DNA of 64,000 bases from Escherichia coli. GTDB taxonomy: Bacteria > Pseudomonadota > Gammaproteobacteria > Enterobacterales > Enterobacteriaceae. The stretch's first letter is position 1; every line of letters starts with the position of its first letter. The stretch is taken from assembly GCF_044324785.1 (NCBI RefSeq), contig NZ_CP172127.1. The stretch is one strand, 5' to 3'. The position numbers and the translations under genes are program-made. The notes beneath the pieces were generated by a model. That model was not told the origin of the DNA and searched no databases. It saw nothing but the letters and a program-made list of their open reading frames with translations. Positions 510 to 10,705 of this stretch are shown piece after piece.

Positions 510-878
510 GTGGTTTATCCCCTTTTTGCCGCGATTATAAAGGGGATATCCAACAATAACCCCACGACTCATCTCAATTATCTCGTCACGACCAGGCAAA
601 GCCCCAGCCCGGTCTCTTGCAGTCGCGTTCACGCCTGAATGACTTCTCCTGAACTTAAGTCTCAGACCTATTTGGCCGGTAATCCCTCTCAAATTTGCTC
701 ATTTTGCGTTCCGCCTTCCATCAACCTGTAACAGATCCAGCCATTTTCTGCGTAATTGTGATCTCAGTTGTAAAACGCAGATCATTATCTGTGTTTTGCA
801 GATTTAATGTTGACCTCAAAAATCATGTGGGTAAGTATGATGACCATCTAAGCAAAACAAAACACAGAGGATGACGCA

Positions 879-1955
879 ATGAAAGCACTGGCTCGGTTTG
901 GCAAAGCCTTTGGCGGCTACAAGATGATCGATGTGCCACAACCCATTTGTGGCCCGGAAGATGTAGTGATTGAAATTAAAGCCGCGGCAATCTGCGGCGC
1001 AGACATGAAGCACTACAATGTCGATAGCGGTTCTGATGAGTTTAACTCTATCCGCGGCCATGAGTTCGCAGGTTGTATTACGCAGGTTGGTGAAAAAGTC
1101 AAAGACTGGAAAGTGGGGCAACGCGTCGTGTCGGATAACAGCGGTCACGTCTGCGGCGTTTGTCCGGCCTGTGAACAAGGTGATTTTCTGTGTTGTACAG
1201 AAAAAGTAAACCTTGGTCTGGATAACAATACCTGGGGCGGTGGTTTTTCCAAATATTGTCTGGTTCCTGGCGAAATTCTCAAAATTCATCGTCATGCGTT
1301 GTGGGAAATCCCTGATGGTGTTGATTATGAGGACGCAGCCGTACTTGACCCTATCTGTAATGCCTACAAATCCATCGCGCAGCAATCGAAATTCCTTCCT
1401 GGTCAGGATGTGGTCGTCATCGGCACTGGCCCACTCGGGCTGTTCTCCGTACAAATGGCGCGGATTATGGGGGCGGTAAATATCGTCGTCGTTGGTCTGC
1501 AAGAAGATGTGGCGGTCCGCTTTCCGGTTGCAAAAGAACTGGGTGCGACGGCTGTAGTAAATGGTTCTACCGAAGATGTGGTGGCGCGCTGCCAGCAAAT
1601 TTGTGGCAAAGACAATCTGGGACTGGTGATTGAATGCTCCGGTGCCAATATCGCACTGAAACAAGCCATCGAAATGCTCCGCCCGAACGGGGAAGTGGTA
1701 CGCGTTGGAATGGGCTTCAAACCTCTTGATTTCTCGATTAATGACATTACCGCCTGGAACAAAAGCATCATTGGGCATATGGCCTATGACTCCACCTCAT
1801 GGCGTAACGCTCTCCGGCTATTAGCCAGCGGCGCTATCAAAGTCAAACCGATGATCACGCATCGTATCGGCCTGTCGCAATGGCGCGAAGGGTTTGAAGC
1901 GATGGTCGATAAAACCGCAATCAAAGTGATCATGACTTACGACTTTGATGAATAA
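879..1955 (+). CDS. ydjL: Zn-dependent medium-chain alcohol/polyol dehydrogenase YdjL (358 aa)
   Basis: Track ORF; GHEFAG Zn-ligand motif, CGVCPACEQGDFLCC structural-Zn motif, VVVIGTGPLG Rossmann motif. Confidence 0.9.
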   Translation: MKALARFGKAFGGYKMIDVPQPICGPEDVVIEIKAAAICGADMKHYNVDSGSDEFNSIRGHEFAGCITQVGEKVKDWKVGQRVVSDNSGHVCGVCPACEQGDFLCCTEKVNLGLDNNTWGGGFSKYCLVPGEILKIHRHALWEIPDGVDYEDAAVLDPICNAYKSIAQQSKFLPGQDVVVIGTGPLGLFSVQMARIMGAVNIVVVGLQEDVAVRFPVAKELGATAVVNGSTEDVVARCQQICGKDNLGLVIECSGANIALKQAIEMLRPNGEVVRVGMGFKPLDFSINDITAWNKSIIGHMAYDSTSWRNALRLLASGAIKVKPMITHRIGLSQWREGFEAMVDKTAIKVIMTYDFDE

Positions 1956-1981
1956 CTACTCTCCTGAAGGAACGTTATCGC

Positions 1982-3361
1982 ATGGAACAGATAACAAAAC
2001 CGCATTGTGGTGCACGGCTGGATCGCTTACCGGATTGCCGCTGGCATTCGTCAATGTTTGCTATCGTCGCGTTTGGCTTGCTTGTCTGCTGGAGTAATGC
2101 CGTTGGTGGCTTGATCCTCGCGCAGCTGAAAGAGTTGGGCTGGACAGATAATTCCACCACTGCCACATTCTCAGCAATCACGACCGCCGGAATGTTTCTC
2201 GGTGCGCTGGTTGGCGGCATCATCGGTGACAAAACCGGTCGCAGAAATGCGTTCATCCTCTATGAGGCCATTCATATTGCCTCGATGGTGGTCGGTGCTT
2301 TTTCACCGAATATGGATTTCCTTATTGCCTGCCGTTTTGTGATGGGCGTTGGGCTGGGAGCTTTACTGGTGACGCTGTTTGCTGGGTTCACCGAATATAT
2401 GCCCGGTAGAAATCGCGGAACGTGGTCCAGTCGGGTTTCCTTTATTGGCAACTGGTCATATCCGCTCTGTTCATTGATTGCGATGGGACTCACGCCGCTG
2501 ATTAGTGCTGAGTGGAACTGGCGGGTACAACTGCTTATCCCTGCAATATTGTCGCTTATCGCTACGGCGCTGGCCTGGCGCTACTTTCCTGAATCCCCGC
2601 GCTGGCTGGAATCGCGCGGACGGTATCAGGAAGCCGAGAAAGTCATGCGGAGTATAGAAGAAGGCGTCATACGCCAGACGGGTAAACCTTTGCCGCCCGT
2701 GGTTATTGCTGATGACGGTAAAGCGCCACAAGCGGTGCCGTATTCAGCCTTACTGACAGGCGTATTACTGAAACGCGTGATATTAGGTTCTTGTGTGCTG
2801 ATTGCCATGAACGTTGTGCAGTACACACTAATTAACTGGTTGCCAACGATATTCATGACCCAGGGGATTAATTTAAAAGACTCGATTGTTTTAAATACCA
2901 TGAGTATGTTTGGCGCGCCATTTGGTATTTTTATTGCCATGCTGGTGATGGATAAAATTCCGCGTAAAACAATGGGTGTGGGGCTATTAATCCTGATTGC
3001 GGTGCTCGGATATATCTATTCACTGCAAACCAGTATGTTGCTCATAACGTTGATTGGTTTCTTCCTGATTACTTTCGTCTATATGTACGTTTGCTATGCC
3101 TCGGCAGTGTATGTCCCTGAAATCTGGCCGACAGAGGCCAAACTCCGTGGCTCCGGTCTGGCGAATGCGGTAGGGCGAATCAGTGGTATTGCCGCACCTT
3201 ATGCCGTTGCAGTGCTGCTCAGTAGTTATGGCGTAACGGGAGTCTTTATTCTTCTGGGGGCGGTTTCAATTATTGTCGCAATTGCTATCGCCACCATTGG
3301 AATTGAAACCAAAGGTGTCTCCGTTGAAAGTTTAAGTATTGATGCAGTAGTCAATAAATAA
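1982..3361 (+). CDS. ydjK: MFS (sugar-porter-like) transporter YdjK (459 aa)
   Basis: Track ORF; multi-span hydrophobic protein with MFS signature GDKTGRR after TM2. Confidence 0.88.
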   Translation: MEQITKPHCGARLDRLPDCRWHSSMFAIVAFGLLVCWSNAVGGLILAQLKELGWTDNSTTATFSAITTAGMFLGALVGGIIGDKTGRRNAFILYEAIHIASMVVGAFSPNMDFLIACRFVMGVGLGALLVTLFAGFTEYMPGRNRGTWSSRVSFIGNWSYPLCSLIAMGLTPLISAEWNWRVQLLIPAILSLIATALAWRYFPESPRWLESRGRYQEAEKVMRSIEEGVIRQTGKPLPPVVIADDGKAPQAVPYSALLTGVLLKRVILGSCVLIAMNVVQYTLINWLPTIFMTQGINLKDSIVLNTMSMFGAPFGIFIAMLVMDKIPRKTMGVGLLILIAVLGYIYSLQTSMLLITLIGFFLITFVYMYVCYASAVYVPEIWPTEAKLRGSGLANAVGRISGIAAPYAVAVLLSSYGVTGVFILLGAVSIIVAIAIATIGIETKGVSVESLSIDAVVNK

Positions 3362-3377
3362 TACTGGTGGATTCAAA

Positions 3378-4421
3378 ATGAAAAATTCAAAAGCAATATT
3401 GCAGGTGCCGGGCACAATGAAAATTATTTCAGCAGAAATACCTGTGCCTAAAGAAGATGAAGTTTTGATTAAAGTGGAATATGTCGGTATTTGTGGTTCA
3501 GATGTACATGGTTTTGAATCAGGCCCGTTTATTCCGCCTAAAGACCCAAATCAAGAAATTGGCCTGGGACATGAATGCGCCGGGACGGTTGTGGCTGTGG
3601 GAAGCCGTGTGCGCAAATTTAAAGCGGGGGATCGGGTAAATATCGAACCTGGCGTTCCTTGCGGTCACTGTCGTTACTGTCTGGAAGGCAAATATAACAT
3701 CTGCCCGGACGTTGATTTTATGGCGACACAACCTAACTACCGCGGCGCATTAACGCACTATCTGTGTCATCCGGAGAGCTTTACTTACAAACTGCCCGAC
3801 AATATGGACACGATGGAAGGGGCGCTGGTGGAGCCTGCCGCAGTCGGGATGCATGCCGCGATGCTGGCAGATGTTAAACCGGGTAAGAAGATAATTATTC
3901 TGGGAGCGGGTTGTATTGGTTTGATGACGTTGCAAGCGTGCAAATGCCTGGGAGCAACGGAAATTGCCGTCGTTGATGTACTGGAAAAACGTCTGGCAAT
4001 GGCGGAACAGCTTGGTGCGACAGTGGTTATTAACGGCGCAAAAGAAGACACTATTGCACGCTGTCAGCAATTTACCGAAGACATGGGCGAAGATATTGTT
4101 TTCGAAACAGCGGGTTCTGCGGTCACCGTTAAACAGGCACCTTATCTGGTAATGCGCGGCGGTAAAATTATGATTGTTGGTACTGTACCGGGCGATTCGG
4201 CAATCAATTTCCTCAAAATCAATCGCGAAGTCACTATCCAGACAGTATTCCGCTATGCCAATCGTTATCCGGTCACGATTGAAGCTATTTCCACAGGGCG
4301 ATTCGATGTGAAATCGATGGTGACACATATTTACGATTATCAGGATGTACAACAGGCATTTGAAGAGTCGGTTAACAACAAACGCGACATTATTAAAGGC
4401 GTTATTAAAATTAGCGATTAA
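3378..4421 (+). CDS. ydjJ: Zn-dependent sorbitol/threonine-dehydrogenase-like oxidoreductase YdjJ (347 aa)
   Basis: Track ORF; GICGSDVHGF, GHECAG and CGHCRYCLEGKYNIC Zn-ADH motifs. Confidence 0.9.
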   Translation: MKNSKAILQVPGTMKIISAEIPVPKEDEVLIKVEYVGICGSDVHGFESGPFIPPKDPNQEIGLGHECAGTVVAVGSRVRKFKAGDRVNIEPGVPCGHCRYCLEGKYNICPDVDFMATQPNYRGALTHYLCHPESFTYKLPDNMDTMEGALVEPAAVGMHAAMLADVKPGKKIIILGAGCIGLMTLQACKCLGATEIAVVDVLEKRLAMAEQLGATVVINGAKEDTIARCQQFTEDMGEDIVFETAGSAVTVKQAPYLVMRGGKIMIVGTVPGDSAINFLKINREVTIQTVFRYANRYPVTIEAISTGRFDVKSMVTHIYDYQDVQQAFEESVNNKRDIIKGVIKISD

Positions 4422-4441
4422 TTAATACGGGAGAACAGAAT

Positions 4442-5278
4442 ATGCTCGCAGATATCAGATATTGGGAAAACGATGCCACAAATAAACATTATGCAATTGC
4501 CCATTTTAACGTATGGAATGCAGAAATGTTGATGGGCGTTATCGACGCAGCCGAAGAAGCGAAATCACCGGTTATTATTTCTTTTGGTACAGGTTTTGTC
4601 GGCAACACCTCATTTGAAGATTTCTCTCACATGATGGTATCAATGGCACAAAAAGCAACGGTGCCGGTAATAACTCATTGGGATCATGGTCGGAGTATGG
4701 AGATTATTCATAACGCCTGGACTCATGGTATGAATTCATTAATGCGTGATGCTTCCGCGTTTGATTTCGAAGAAAATATTCGTTTAACCAAAGAGGCTGT
4801 TGATTTTTTCCATCCGCTGGGTATTCCGGTAGAGGCGGAATTAGGGCATGTCGGTAATGAAACCGTTTATGAGGAAGCTCTGGCGGGCTATCACTATACC
4901 GATCCTGACCAGGCGGCTGAATTTGTTGAACGTACGGGCTGTGACTCATTGGCTGTCGCCATCGGCAACCAGCATGGGGTTTATACGTCAGAGCCACAAT
5001 TGAACTTTGAGGTCGTCAAACGCGTACGCGATGCCGTTTCTGTTCCGCTGGTTTTGCACGGTGCATCGGGGATCAGTGATGCCGACATTAAAACTGCAAT
5101 TTCGTTGGGTATCGCGAAAATCAACATTCATACGGAGCTCTGTCAGGCCGCAATGGTAACAGTGAAAGAAAACCAGGATCAGCCTTTCCTGCATTTAGAA
5201 CGTGAAGTACGTAAAGCTGTAAAAGAACGGGCATTGGAAAAAATTAAACTGTTCGGTTCTGATGGCAAAGCGGAATAA
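4442..5278 (+). CDS. ydjI: Class II (metal-dependent) fructose-bisphosphate-aldolase-family aldolase YdjI (278 aa)
   Basis: Track ORF; class II FBA/tagatose-bisphosphate aldolase fold motifs (HxDHG, HGASG). Confidence 0.88.
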   Translation: MLADIRYWENDATNKHYAIAHFNVWNAEMLMGVIDAAEEAKSPVIISFGTGFVGNTSFEDFSHMMVSMAQKATVPVITHWDHGRSMEIIHNAWTHGMNSLMRDASAFDFEENIRLTKEAVDFFHPLGIPVEAELGHVGNETVYEEALAGYHYTDPDQAAEFVERTGCDSLAVAIGNQHGVYTSEPQLNFEVVKRVRDAVSVPLVLHGASGISDADIKTAISLGIAKINIHTELCQAAMVTVKENQDQPFLHLEREVRKAVKERALEKIKLFGSDGKAE

Positions 5279-5282
5279 TGAT

Positions 5283-6230
5283 ATGGATAATCTCGACGTT
5301 ATTTGTATAGGTGCCGCTATTGTTGATATTCCATTGCAACCGGTCAGTAAAAATATCTTTGATGTGGATTCTTATCCTCTTGAAAGAATCGCAATGACCA
5401 CCGGGGGTGATGCAATAAATGAAGCAACAATTATTTCTCGTCTGGGCCATCGCACAGCATTAATGAGTCGTATTGGTAAAGATGCCGCCGGGCAATTTAT
5501 TCTCGACCATTGCCGCAAAGAGAATATTGATATTCAAAACCTGAAGCAGGACGTCAGCATAGATACCTCTATTAACGTTGGACTGGTGACGGAGGATGGC
5601 GAGCGGACGTTTGTTACAAACCGTAACGGCAGTCTGTGGAAATTGAATATTGACGATGTTGATTTTTCGCGGTTTTCTCAGGCGAAATTATTATCACTGG
5701 CCAGTATTTTCAACAGTCCTCTATTGGATGGTAAAGCGCTAACAGAAATTTTTACGCAAGCTAAAGCCCGGCAGATGATTATCTGTGCCGATATGATCAA
5801 ACCGCGGTTGAATGAAACGCTGGATGATATTTGCGAAGCATTGAGTTATGTCGATTATCTGTTTCCTAATTTTGCCGAGGCAAAATTACTCACCGGGAAA
5901 GAGACACTGGATGAAATTGCTGACTGCTTTCTTGCGTGCGGCGTAAAAACGGTGGTGATTAAAACGGGTAAAGACGGCTGCTTTATCAAGCGTGGTGACA
6001 TGACGATGAAGGTGCCGGCGGTCGCAGGAATAACCGCCATCGACACTATTGGCGCAGGCGATAACTTTGCTTCTGGCTTTATAGCGGCTCTGTTAGAAGG
6101 CAAAAATCTGCGTGAATGCGCACGCTTTGCCAATGCAACGGCTGCTATTTCGGTTTTAAGCGTCGGTGCCACCACCGGTGTAAAAAACAGAAAGCTGGTC
6201 GAACAATTGCTGGAAGAATACGAAGGATAA
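5283..6230 (+). CDS. ydjH: PfkB/ribokinase-family sugar kinase YdjH (315 aa)
   Basis: Track ORF 5262..6230; start placed at ATG 5283 (MDNLDVICIGAAIVD...); C-terminal GAGD anion-hole motif typical of PfkB kinases. Confidence 0.88.
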   Translation: MDNLDVICIGAAIVDIPLQPVSKNIFDVDSYPLERIAMTTGGDAINEATIISRLGHRTALMSRIGKDAAGQFILDHCRKENIDIQNLKQDVSIDTSINVGLVTEDGERTFVTNRNGSLWKLNIDDVDFSRFSQAKLLSLASIFNSPLLDGKALTEIFTQAKARQMIICADMIKPRLNETLDDICEALSYVDYLFPNFAEAKLLTGKETLDEIADCFLACGVKTVVIKTGKDGCFIKRGDMTMKVPAVAGITAIDTIGAGDNFASGFIAALLEGKNLRECARFANATAAISVLSVGATTGVKNRKLVEQLLEEYEG

Positions 6231-6239
6231 TGAAGGCAA

Positions 6240-7220
6240 ATGAAAAAGATACCTTTAGGCACAACGGATATAACGCTTTCGCGAATGGGGTTGGGGACAT
6301 GGGCCATTGGCGGCGGTCCTGCATGGAATGGCGATCTCGATCGGCAAATATGTATTGATACGATTCTTGAAGCCCATCGTTGCGGCATTAACCTGATTGA
6401 TACTGCGCCAGGATATAACTTTGGCAATAGTGAAGTTATCGTCGGTCAGGCGTTAAAAAAACTGCCCCGTGAACAGGTTGTAGTAGAAACCAAATGCGGC
6501 ATTGTCTGGGAACGAAAAGGGAGTTTATTCAACAAAGTTGGCGATCGGCAGTTGTATAAAAACCTTTCCCCGGAATCTATCCGCGAAGAGGTAGAAGCCA
6601 GCTTGCAACGTCTGGGTATTGATTACATCGATATCTACATGACGCACTGGCAGTCGGTGCCGCCATTTTTTACGCCGATCGCTGAAACTGTCGCAGTGCT
6701 CAATGAGTTAAAGGCCGAAGGGAAAATTCGCGCTATCGGCGCTGCTAACGTCGATGCTGACCATATCCGCGAGTATCTGCAATATGGTGAACTGGATATT
6801 ATTCAGGCGAAATACAGTATCCTCGACCGGGCAATGGAAAGCGAACTGCTGCCGCTATGTCGTGATAATGGCATTGTGGTTCAGGTTTATTCCCCGCTAG
6901 AGCAGGGATTGTTGACCGGTACCATCACTCGTGATTACGTTCCGGGCGGCGCTCGGGCAAATAAAGTCTGGTTCCAGCGTGAAAACATGCTGAAAGTGAT
7001 TGATATGCTTGAACAGTGGCAGCCACTCTGTGCTCGTTATCAGTGCACAATTCCCACTCTGGCACTGGCGTGGATATTAAAACAGAGTGATTTAATCTCC
7101 ATTCTTAGTGGGGCTACTGCACCGGAACAGGTACGCGAAAATGTCGCGGCATTGAATATCAACTTATCGGATGCAGACGCAACATTGATGAGGGAAATGG
7201 CAGAGGCCCTGGAGCGTTAA
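6240..7220 (+). CDS. ydjG: Aldo-keto reductase YdjG (326 aa)
   Basis: Track ORF; AKR family signature (LIDTAPGY, catalytic tetrad context). Confidence 0.88.
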   Translation: MKKIPLGTTDITLSRMGLGTWAIGGGPAWNGDLDRQICIDTILEAHRCGINLIDTAPGYNFGNSEVIVGQALKKLPREQVVVETKCGIVWERKGSLFNKVGDRQLYKNLSPESIREEVEASLQRLGIDYIDIYMTHWQSVPPFFTPIAETVAVLNELKAEGKIRAIGAANVDADHIREYLQYGELDIIQAKYSILDRAMESELLPLCRDNGIVVQVYSPLEQGLLTGTITRDYVPGGARANKVWFQRENMLKVIDMLEQWQPLCARYQCTIPTLALAWILKQSDLISILSGATAPEQVRENVAALNINLSDADATLMREMAEALER

Positions 7221-7356
7221 ATACTCAACACGATTCACCTCTGTTTCTGTGAAAACTGTGATGAAAATCTGTGATTCAAACAGGTTATTTTGAAAGTAAA
7301 CATCGGTTATGCGATAATCGCGCTAATGTGATGTAAAAAGATACAGGGGTGTAATC

Positions 7357-8115
7357 GTGGCGGCAAAAGACAGGATTCAGGCAATTAAGCAAATGGTTGC
7401 CAACGATAAAAAGGTGACAGTCTCAAATTTGAGTGGGATTTTTCAAGTAACCGAAGAAACCATTCGCCGCGATCTTGAGAAGCTGGAAGATGAAGGCTTT
7501 TTGACCAGAACCTATGGTGGTGCTGTTTTAAATACAGCGATGTTGACGGAGAATATCCATTTTTATAAGCGCGCTTCATCGTTTTATGAAGAGAAGCAGC
7601 TTATTGCACGCAAGGCACTACCCTTTATCGACAATAAAACCACTATGGCAGCCGATTCCAGTAGTACCGTTATGGAATTGCTCAAATTGTTGCAGGACCG
7701 TAGTGACCTGACGTTGCTAACCAACTCGGCGGAAGCGATTCATGTTCTGGCTCAATCAGAAATTAAAGTCGTTTCAACGGGGGGGGAACTAAACAAAAAT
7801 ACACTTTCCCTGCAAGGAAGAATTACTAAAGAGATCATCAGCCGCTACCATGTCGATATCATGGTAATGAGTTGTAAAGGTCTTGATATTAACAGCGGCG
7901 CGCTGGACTCTAACGAAGCGGAAGCTGAAATCAAAAAGACAATGATCCGTCAGGCGACAGAAGTTGCGTTATTGGTTGATCACTCTAAGTTTGATCGCAA
8001 AGCTTTTGTCCAGTTAGCTGACTTTAGTCATATTAATTACATAATAACTGATAAATCACCGGGTGCAGAGTGGATAGCATTTTGCAAAGACAATAATATC
8101 CAGCTGGTGTGGTAA
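7357..8115 (+). CDS. ydjF: DeoR-family transcriptional regulator YdjF (252 aa, GTG start)
   Basis: Track ORF; N-terminal HTH (VTVSNLSGIFQVTEETIRRDLEKLE) and C-terminal DeoR sugar-phosphate-binding domain; GTG at 7357. Confidence 0.88.
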   Translation: MAAKDRIQAIKQMVANDKKVTVSNLSGIFQVTEETIRRDLEKLEDEGFLTRTYGGAVLNTAMLTENIHFYKRASSFYEEKQLIARKALPFIDNKTTMAADSSSTVMELLKLLQDRSDLTLLTNSAEAIHVLAQSEIKVVSTGGELNKNTLSLQGRITKEIISRYHVDIMVMSCKGLDINSGALDSNEAEAEIKKTMIRQATEVALLVDHSKFDRKAFVQLADFSHINYIITDKSPGAEWIAFCKDNNIQLVW

Positions 8116-9510
8116 TTTAAGCACACGTTGTCAATATTATTTGTTCCTGCGCCTGGAAATAAAATGATGATAAAGATGCGGCAAGTGAATTTGCCGCAAT
8201 TGCTACCTTTTTAGCAAATCCGAGGCACCTAATGGAACAATATGATCAAATTGGCGCAAGACTGGACCGCTTGCCTTTGGCCCGGTTTCATTATCGTATA
8301 TTTGGTATTATAAGCTTTAGTCTGTTATTAACGGGTTTTTTGAGTTATTCAGGCAATGTTGTTTTAGCAAAGCTGGTAAGCAATGGATGGTCAAATAATT
8401 TCCTCAATGCCGCCTTTACCTCGGCATTAATGTTTGGTTATTTCATCGGCTCTCTTACCGGTGGGTTCATCGGTGATTATTTTGGGCGGCGCAGGGCTTT
8501 TCGCATAAATCTTCTCATCGTCGGTATTGCGGCAACAGGGGCCGCTTTTGTCCCTGATATGTACTGGCTCATCTTCTTTCGCTTCCTGATGGGCACAGGA
8601 ATGGGGGCGCTGATTATGGTTGGCTATGCTTCGTTTACGGAGTTTATCCCCGCGACGGTGCGTGGAAAATGGTCCGCGCGGCTCTCATTTGTCGGTAACT
8701 GGTCGCCCATGTTGTCTGCGGCGATAGGCGTGGTGGTTATCGCTTTTTTTAGTTGGCGGATAATGTTTCTGCTGGGTGGTATTGGCATACTGTTAGCCTG
8801 GTTTCTCTCAGGTAAATACTTTATTGAGTCGCCTCGATGGTTGGCGGGGAAAGGACAAATCGCAGGTGCAGAAAGCCAACTTCGTGAAGTAGAGCAGCAA
8901 ATTGAAAGAGAGAAGAGTGTTCGTTTACCCCCGCTTACTTTGAATCAGAGCAACAGCAAGGCTAACATAATCAATGGTACTTTCTGGCTGCTGTTTAAAG
9001 GGAAAATGTTACGACGTACATTAGTCGCGATTACTGTTTTAATTGCAATGAACATTTCACTTTATACCATCACCGTATGGATACCGACCATATTTGTTAA
9101 CTCCGGCATTGATGTCGATAAATCAATATTAATGACTGCTGTTATTATGATTGGTGCTCCGGTAGGAATATTTATTGCGGCATTAATTATTGATCATTTT
9201 CCTCGTCGATTATTTGGCTCCGCCTTACTTATTATTATTGCCGTGTTAGGCTATATCTATTCAATTCAGACTACAGAGTGGGCGATTTTAATCTATGGCC
9301 TGGTGATGATCTTCTTTTTATACATGTATGTTTGCTTCGCGTCGGCGGTTTATATCCCGGAGCTTTGGCCAACGCATTTACGCCTGCGCGGTTCAGGTTT
9401 CGTTAATGCCGTCGGACGGATCGTCGCGGTCTTCACGCCTTATGGCGTTGCGGCACTATTAACGCATTATGGGTCAATCACGGTGTTTATAGTGCTTGGC
9501 GTGATGTTAG

Positions 9511-10705
<1,195 letters not shown>

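Follow-up and report, generated by a model that had tools for sequence, protein, structure and literature searches.

The spacer upstream of ydjF probably holds a composite regulatory element, in which a predicted operator for the DeoR/GlpR-family regulator YdjF is joined by an Escherichia-specific extra box that coincides with a CRP site and by the remnant of a weaker upstream box. The operator is most likely the conserved box around the third of three closely spaced TGTGA repeats, as judged from sequence comparison. We found no report of a YdjF binding site in the searchable literature, and to that extent the predicted operator is new; the kind of element is ordinary. As a whole, the region is a composite of the predicted YdjF operator, an already published SELEX CRP site and a neighbouring RNA feature, and its description is moderately useful. 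The ydjLKJIHG genes form a sugar-acid cluster of E. coli, and predicted operator coordinates at both promoters, a position weight matrix (PWM) and an invariant recognition helix make its regulation testable. The ydjL promoter (PydjL) is a validated gut-responsive biosensor trigger, whose authors describe function and regulation as largely uncharacterised. All coordinates refer to the window, the 64-kb stretch of E. coli DNA that was analysed, and to its plus strand unless stated otherwise.

Repeats and conserved footprints in the ydjG-ydjF spacer

The plus strand carries ydjLKJIHG-ydjF-ydjE, and ydjG and ydjF bear these names in the RefSeq annotation under matching sequence. The ydjG stop codon (7218-7220) and the GTG start codon of ydjF (7357) are separated by a spacer of 136 bp, which is a 100% match to that of K-12 MG1655. 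A preliminary description of this DNA had placed three TGTGA words in the spacer, and the sequence bears this out: 7247-7280 reads CTGTGAAAACTGTGATGAAAATCTGTGATTCAAA, with TGTGA starting at 7248, 7257 and 7270 and CTGTGA at 7247, 7256 and 7269, all on the plus strand, and with 83 bp between the end of repeat 3 and the ydjF GTG. Such a same-strand triple within 27 bp is a single case in the window. Over the whole spacer, the plus strand contains four TGTG words and no CACA.

A consensus scan of the spacer returned one sigma-70-like promoter with an extended -10 (PydjF), composed of the -35 element TTGAAA (7290-7295), a 17-bp spacer with TG at 7310-7311, and the -10 element GATAAT (7313-7318). 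The same arrangement, TTGAAA-17-GATAAT, is given for ydjF among the constitutive promoters of the RpoD holoenzyme (Shimada 2014, PMC3946193). From this agreement of scan and publication, the transcription start is placed at ~7325-7326. A fourth TGTGA on the same strand (7327-7331) lies directly 3' of the predicted start; it is confined to Escherichia, with CATGA or ATTAT in other genera, and the box found there scores 6.3 bits with the PWM described below.

Within E. coli, the 55 bp at 7236-7290 are invariant in 3329 of the 4328 genomes carrying the locus, and in the two variant genomes that were inspected the differences all lie outside the repeats. The repeats are essentially fixed in this species. 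The ydj locus itself (about 600-9600) is carried by 4329 of 5426 complete E. coli genomes and is missing from the other ~20%; in one genome, a plasmid bears a second copy.

Beyond E. coli, a scan with one genome per species yielded 22 loci with YdjF of 78-98% identity, from Escherichia, Citrobacter, the Klebsiella oxytoca group, Raoultella, Yokenella, Budvicia, Intestinirhabdus, Symbiopectobacterium and Serratia; nearly all retain the gene order ydjLKJIHG-ydjF(-ydjE). Alignment of the spacers (n = 23) reveals conserved footprints that alternate with variable stretches. Block 1, ACCTCTGTTTCTGTGTAAAA, includes repeat 1 in the form CTGTGT; a variable stretch of 9 nt follows, where E. coli has repeat 2; block 2, AAATCTGTGATTCAGACATGTTcTTTTGAAAATAAACAT, includes repeat 3 and the -35 element. 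A further footprint covers the -10 element, and block 3, GGAAACAGAGGTG, is the Shine-Dalgarno (SD) region.

The three repeats do not fare alike in this comparison. Repeat 3 (7270-7274) is enclosed by the main conserved box, AAATCTGTGATTCAAA at 7265-7280, which lies at about -60 to -40 of PydjF and has an imperfect inverted arm, AACAGGT, extending to 7285. Conservation at 7266-7277 is at least 90% across the 23 spacers, the box at the same place in other Enterobacterales scores 8.8-20.6 bits, and its minus-strand partner in E. coli scores 9.3 bits. The conserved unit is ~16-21 bp, of a form like AAATCTGTG(N3-5)CACAGATTT, and its core is ATCTGTG, not CTGTGA. Repeat 1 (TGTGA 7248-7252, CTGTGA 7247-7252) is kept as TTTCTGTGTAAAA, i.e. 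with CTGTGT, in at least 20 of the 23 aligned spacers, and repeat 3 follows it 22 bp on. The box at this position has a score of -3.6 bits in E. coli. In Citrobacter, Klebsiella, Yokenella and Budvicia its counterpart reaches 6-9 bits, and a weak box stands there 21-22 bp upstream of the main box; in E. coli, it may be regarded as a weak or vestigial upstream box.

Repeat 2 (7257-7261) was not found outside Escherichia in the aligned orthologous spacers, in which other genera have unrelated sequence, and E. whittamii has CTATGA at its position. It lies in a secondary box, AAAACTGTGATGAAAA at 7252-7267, 13 bp upstream of the main box. This secondary box is likewise restricted to Escherichia (E. 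whittamii, TAATCTATGATTTAAA, 11.2 bits; Escherichia sp. E1V33, 6.2 bits). The expected conservation in orthologues therefore applies to repeat 3 and in part to repeat 1, and fails for repeat 2 outside Escherichia. The repeats are not the equivalent units of a single array.

A box shared by the ydjF and ydjL promoters and its probable regulator

Since the sites were not to be picked by eye, we used a Gibbs sampler (width 16, both strands, one site per sequence) on 16 ydjL and ydjF upstream regions from Firmicutes, Agarivorans and others, with Enterobacterales excluded. Three equally good solutions were obtained, representing one motif in two registers or strands, and the second one was used. 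The motif, AAATCT[GT]T....CAAA, reached 13.7 bits from a training set of partly related sequences (Herbinix, L041); none of 20 runs with shuffled sets exceeded 10.7 bits. The consensus of the resulting PWM is AAATCTGTGATTCAAA, identical in every letter to 7265-7280 of E. coli. In a scan of the window (127,970 positions), rank 1 is 7265 on the plus strand with 23.5 bits. Rank 2 is 790 on the minus strand (15.2 bits), which is one arm of a palindrome in PydjL (785-805), whose plus-strand arm at 785 takes rank 30 with 8.6 bits. The box of repeat 2, at 7252 on the plus strand, is found at rank 6 with 12.3 bits.

The palindrome upstream of ydjL, TTATCTGTGTTTTGCAGATTT at 785-805, is an imperfect 21-bp palindrome conserved across 21 promoters, and is the predicted operator of PydjL. 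It ends 4 bp before the -35 element of this promoter (-35 TTGACC, 810-815; -10 AAGTAT, 833-838), and conservation in the ydjL upstream alignment spans from TTTGTGATCTGAGTTGTGAAATGCAGATCAATATCTGTGTTTTAAAGATTTAATG to the -35 TTGACC. The core word ATCTGTG is present at 787-793. Both promoters share the geometry TCTGTG-N16-(-35), with the -35 element at 810 for PydjL and at 7290 for PydjF, and at both another TGTG stands upstream, by 21 bp at ydjL and 22 bp at ydjF. A weaker box at PydjL (805-820, 8.3 bits) reaches the -35 element. Upstream of the palindrome, the region 754-784 contains additional TGTGA-type words that are conserved, TTGTGATCT (756-764) and TTGTAAAA (768-775; TTGTGAAA in other genera), as well as an inverted GATCTG...CAGATC pair. 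These words may be extra boxes of the same ydjL operator array, with a minus-strand box of 9.6-15.2 bits in other genera. Upstream of ydjE, no YdjF box was found by the PWM scan; this spacer has instead a conserved hairpin at ~8170-8195 (CGGCAAG...TTTGCCG), whose stem is kept across genera while the loop is variable, and which is preceded by a conserved AATGATGAT.

The motif extends well beyond the Enterobacterales. Homologues of YdjF with 59-76% identity occur in the same cluster in Agarivorans, Enterobacillus, Anaerostipes, Caproiciproducens, Herbinix, a Vallitaleaceae genome and several metagenomic contigs. Their promoters do not align with the E. coli ones, yet share the same word. PydjL of Enterobacillus carries AAATCTGTGTTTCACAGATTT, a perfect 21-bp palindrome, and that of Anaerostipes carries AAATCTGTGAAAAA, followed 21 bp on by ATATCTGTAAAACAGACAT directly before TTGACT. 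PydjF of Herbinix has AAATCTGTTTTTCAAA-N8-TTTGAAAAACAGATTT, colinear with 7265-7318 of E. coli and with the right box covering the -35 element; in the ydjF promoters of both Herbinix and L041, a pair of perfect inverted boxes is present, of which the right-hand one covers the -35 element. At the corresponding place in E. coli, over the -35 element of PydjF, the right-hand inverted box is degenerate (at most 0.9 bits). The spacing of the half-sites also differs, being N3 in PydjL of Enterobacillus and Agarivorans and N5-N7 at PydjF. The box also precedes an isolated ydjF homologue (L044). The proposal that one motif is common to the ydjF and ydjL promoters is hence confirmed, and the motif is co-inherited with YdjF orthologues from Firmicutes to E. 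coli, as would be expected of a YdjF operator in control of both promoters. The full ydjLKJIHG-ydjF cluster is present in the same order in the Firmicutes loci L038, L040, L041 and L043 (Anaerostipes, Caproiciproducens, Herbinix), where YdjF has 59-63% identity and an additional gene for ribulose-phosphate 3-epimerase follows ydjL; this points to cluster transfer between phyla.

The natural candidate for the binding protein is YdjF itself. The protein and its orthologues have HTH_DeoR (PF08220) and DeoRC (PF00455) domains, RefSeq names it a DeoR/GlpR family regulator, and its recognition helix, VTEETIRRDLEKLE, does not vary among 11 orthologues, the most distant of which has 59% identity. YdjF is moreover the sole regulator gene common to all box-carrying clusters in the two phyla. 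Firmicutes are not known to use cAMP-CRP control, and the conserved box therefore cannot be a CRP site. Taken together with the single common regulator gene, this makes an operator for YdjF the parsimonious reading of the box. Other features are those of DeoR/GlpR operators: the HTH_DeoR/DeoRC regulator is encoded next to the sites, the motif co-occurs with its orthologues in promoters that cannot be aligned, sites are located at both the operon and the regulator promoter, PydjL has a palindrome, and second boxes stand 13 or 21-22 bp off. The earlier assignment of the repeats to a DeoR-type operator is supported for repeat 3, on the grounds of the first rank with an independent PWM and of conservation; it is weak for repeat 1, and the repeats do not form one array.

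Among regulators of this family, E. coli DeoR has palindromes with looping, and GlpR and AgaR have tandem operators. FruR of Bacillota has four repeats of the 10-bp motif TGAWWGWTTT across the -35 element (PMC11906611). The ydj system resembles these DeoR/GlpR-family operators in its HTH_DeoR plus DeoRC regulator, in having several short AT-rich boxes near or over the -35 element of a sugar-catabolic operon and of the regulator gene, and in the arrangement of the boxes in inverted and two-turn direct phase. When the FruR unit is read as its reverse complement (AAAWCWWTCA), the left half of the ydj box, AAATCTGTGA, agrees with it at 8 of 10 positions. Unlike the case of FruR, the ydj motif is distinct in sequence, the strongest E. 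coli box is upstream of the -35 element and not over it, the extra box specific to Escherichia overlaps a CRP site, and the YdjF site is a prediction from sequence.

We suppose that YdjF would bind 7265-7285 (AAATCTGTGATTCAAA(CAGGT)) and the PydjL palindrome as a dimer or tetramer, engaging PydjL via the palindrome and PydjF via one strong arm and one weak arm. The outcome would be autoregulation of ydjF and control of ydjLKJIHG, relieved by a sugar-phosphate effector made by the pathway. In the DeoR/GlpR family, repression is the commoner mode. For YdjF, repression is more likely than activation; given the box at about -60 to -40, the weak PydjL -10 element AAGTAT and the loss of the box overlapping the -35 element at E. 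coli PydjF, activation or anti-activation may also apply. Because the main box is upstream of the -35 element and the second box is degenerate, simple steric repression of PydjF is not obvious. In a published gut biosensor study, PydjL was reported to be silent in LB and active in the mouse gut, as would fit a local regulator under effector control. Repeat 2 would represent an additional box specific to Escherichia, although its distance of 13 bp from the main box is out of helical phase and thus awkward for cooperative YdjF binding. Repeat 1 would be what is left of a weaker upstream box, placed two helical turns away from the main one and adjoining an anti-Shine-Dalgarno segment.

Predicted pairing between the ydjF Shine-Dalgarno region and the start of the spacer

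Long-range anti-SD:SD pairing is known to couple or gate the translation of downstream cistrons in polycistronic mRNAs. The ydjG-ydjF spacer has the potential for such pairing, because blocks 1 and 3 are reverse complements of each other. The anti-SD arm, ACACGATTCACCTCTGTTTCTG at 7228-7249, begins 8 nt past the ydjG stop codon and at its 3' end runs into the first letters of repeat 1. The opposite arm, AGATACAGGGGTGTAATCGTGG at 7339-7360, contains the SD GGGGT (7346-7350) and the GTG at 7357. The inverted repeat formed by the two arms comprises 16 pairs with one bulge. The helix appears in the minimum-free-energy fold of RNA 7225-7370 (-44.8 kcal/mol, z -4.7), and the duplex alone gives -28 kcal/mol (z -6.2). 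No known RNA family (Rfam) was detected in 600-8400 at E <= 1.

This raises the alternative that the conservation of repeat 1 is that of an RNA, in which the anti-SD arm pairs with the SD and start codon of ydjF in a read-through mRNA and TGTG is incidental. We consider this plausible, though not probable. In its favor, the fold of the E. coli RNA contains the helix, as does the RNAalifold consensus of the 23 spacers, in 12 of 17 clusters the duplex is significant when compared with shuffled sequences, some of these clusters having different arms (L039, AAACCUCC/GGAGGUUU; L045, UUUCCCCAUU/AAUGGGGAA; and Serratia), and no terminator is predicted between ydjG and ydjF. However, the helix stops at CUG, such that the conserved TGTGTAAAA falls outside, and it would account for repeat 1 at most, leaving repeats 2 and 3 unexplained. 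Swapping of the arms among the 23 Enterobacterales spacers gave no co-evolution signal, with -27.0 kcal/mol for native and -26.3 kcal/mol for swapped pairs. This equal stability implies that covariation is weak within the Enterobacterales and that the support for the helix comes from the distant clusters only. The adjoining anti-SD segment accounts for part of the conservation of repeat 1.

Transcripts from the promoter of ydjF itself do not contain the 5' arm. Its position 8 nt after the ydjG stop codon and its absence from these transcripts suggest that translation of ydjF on read-through mRNA is blocked, or coupled to translation of ydjG. The arrangement is like known anti-SD:SD coupling in that the 5' arm lies 8 nt past the upstream stop and the 3' arm covers the SD and the start; it is unlike it in that the loop (~90 nt) encloses the whole ydjF promoter, and it is known from sequence alone. 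The pair 7228-7249/7339-7360 may also act as an inverted repeat at the DNA level instead of in RNA. A module of two layers, i.e. a YdjF operator overlaid by a lineage-specific CRP site, at which the two proteins compete or cooperate, plus an anti-SD:SD helix that silences or couples read-through ydjF, is offered tentatively, and we hold it to be somewhat doubtful. If it were true, synthesis of YdjF would be governed by the ydjF promoter and would not follow operon induction. The pairing, if real, would allow a regulator gene located downstream of its own target operon to escape co-induction.

The CRP site and the remaining explanations

Class I CRP-dependent promoters have TGTGA-N6-TCACA centred near -61.5, and the CytR-CRP systems are composite regions of CRP and a local repressor. 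TGTGA is the half-site of CRP, and ydjF is listed among predicted CRP targets (Shimada 2011, PMC3105977). Table S3 of that work, obtained by genomic SELEX-chip, reports the CRP box ACAGATTTTCATCACA in the ydjF/ydjG spacer at 1.85297 Mb. Its reverse complement, TGTGATGAAAATCTGT, is found at 7257-7272 (22-bp site 7254-7275, centre 7264.5), corresponding to 1854939-1854954 of NC_000913.3; the offset from the published coordinate fits an older genome version. The left half is the TGTGA of repeat 2 (5/5), the middle is TGAAAA, and the right half is TCTGT from repeat 3, which agrees with TCACA at 2 of 5 positions. With a CRP PWM built from the 148 SELEX boxes of the same table, the site scores 8.4 bits, at rank 24 in the window and at the 27th percentile among the SELEX boxes, whereas the values are 2.7 bits for the box that begins at repeat 1 and -1.7 bits for the one at repeat 3. 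Its centre is at -60.5 to -61.5 from the predicted start, a class I, activation-competent position. Since the published box falls on repeats 2 and 3, the CRP alternative raised in the preliminary description has in vitro support for that one pairing only.

If the element were mainly a CRP element, cAMP-CRP at 7254-7275 would serve as a class I activator of ydjF, the TGTGA words would be its half-sites, and there would be no YdjF operator. We regard this as unlikely, even with a SELEX-chip peak in the spacer and a centre at about -61 from the start of a published promoter. Just one pairing of the repeats is CRP-like, and its right half is poor. At the orthologous position, no CRP-like site is found in Citrobacter, Klebsiella, Yokenella, Budvicia and others, and the score is 5.1 bits in E. 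whittamii and 2.6 bits in Escherichia sp. E1V33. Repeat 3 with its flanks, the strongly conserved part, recurs, moreover, in Firmicutes clusters and in PydjL; no CRP score above 3.4 bits was obtained within the conserved operator region of PydjL, and the SELEX table lists no entry for it. The best CRP score in a scan of 620-878 is 7.6 bits at 836, downstream of the PydjL -10 element. In Citrobacter and Yokenella, a CRP-like box, TGCGAAGGGGTTCACG (9.9-10.2 bits; loci L003, L004, L006-L008, L010, L011 and L018), is located at ~-197 from the ydjL ATG and is lacking in E. coli. CRP input to the cluster may be placed at different promoters in different genera.

Within the composite element that we favor, the TGTGA of repeat 2 and the TCTGT of the main box would form a weak CRP site with one good half at a class I position. 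The site is like class I CRP promoters in its perfect TGTGA half, the N6 spacing, the centre at ~-61 from the predicted start and the in vitro selection by cAMP-CRP, and like CytR-CRP regions in overlapping the predicted site of the local regulator. It is unlike class I promoters in its poor right half TCTGT, in not being conserved beyond E. coli, in preceding a regulator gene with a promoter that RNA polymerase already recognises unaided, and in that the evidence is of in vitro selection only. Competition or interaction between CRP and YdjF is to be expected, given that the CRP site (7254-7275) shares 8-11 bp with the main box, and speculatively YdjF could act on its own promoter through displacement of CRP. 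The region would then be an example of regulatory turnover, with a CRP site gained in Escherichia atop an operator conserved across two phyla.

It is also conceivable, but quite improbable, that the box is bound by another transcription factor or is an element of promoter architecture such as a UP-like element. The identity of the binder is deduced from co-inheritance alone, and the box lies at ~-60 to -40, where the alpha-CTD or upstream activators work. Against this stand YdjF as the one regulator common to all box-carrying clusters of two phyla, its invariant recognition helix and the box upstream of the isolated homologue in L044; a UP element is further disfavored by the palindromic form of the box at PydjL. 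Chance clustering of a short word such as TGTGA in an AT-rich spacer (36% G+C) is hardly credible, because an equivalent cluster arose in 4 of 400 first-order Markov simulations (64 kb each, ~1%) and in 0 of 20,000 shuffled spacers, repeats 1 and 3 belong to phylogenetic footprints with variable sequence on either side, and the independent PWM puts 7265 at rank 1.

Sites for other regulators were also considered. GATTCAG in Citrobacter was considered as a possible Cra/FruR half-site; this candidate was set aside, as E. coli has GATTCAA and PydjL is without an equivalent. A LexA box (CTGT-N8-ACAG, or CTG-N10-CAG) was rejected, since CTGT at 7269-7272 and ACAG at 7280-7283 are spaced by N7. A re-analysis of LexA ChIP-chip data (PMC3542263) lists ydjF/ydjK as an unconventional LexA target with the degenerate box CCCTGTATCTTTTTACATCA. 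An RpoE-type SELEX peak within ydjF pertains to ydjE. The degenerate LexA box is the reverse complement of 7330-7349, located between the -10 element and the SD of ydjF and away from the repeats.
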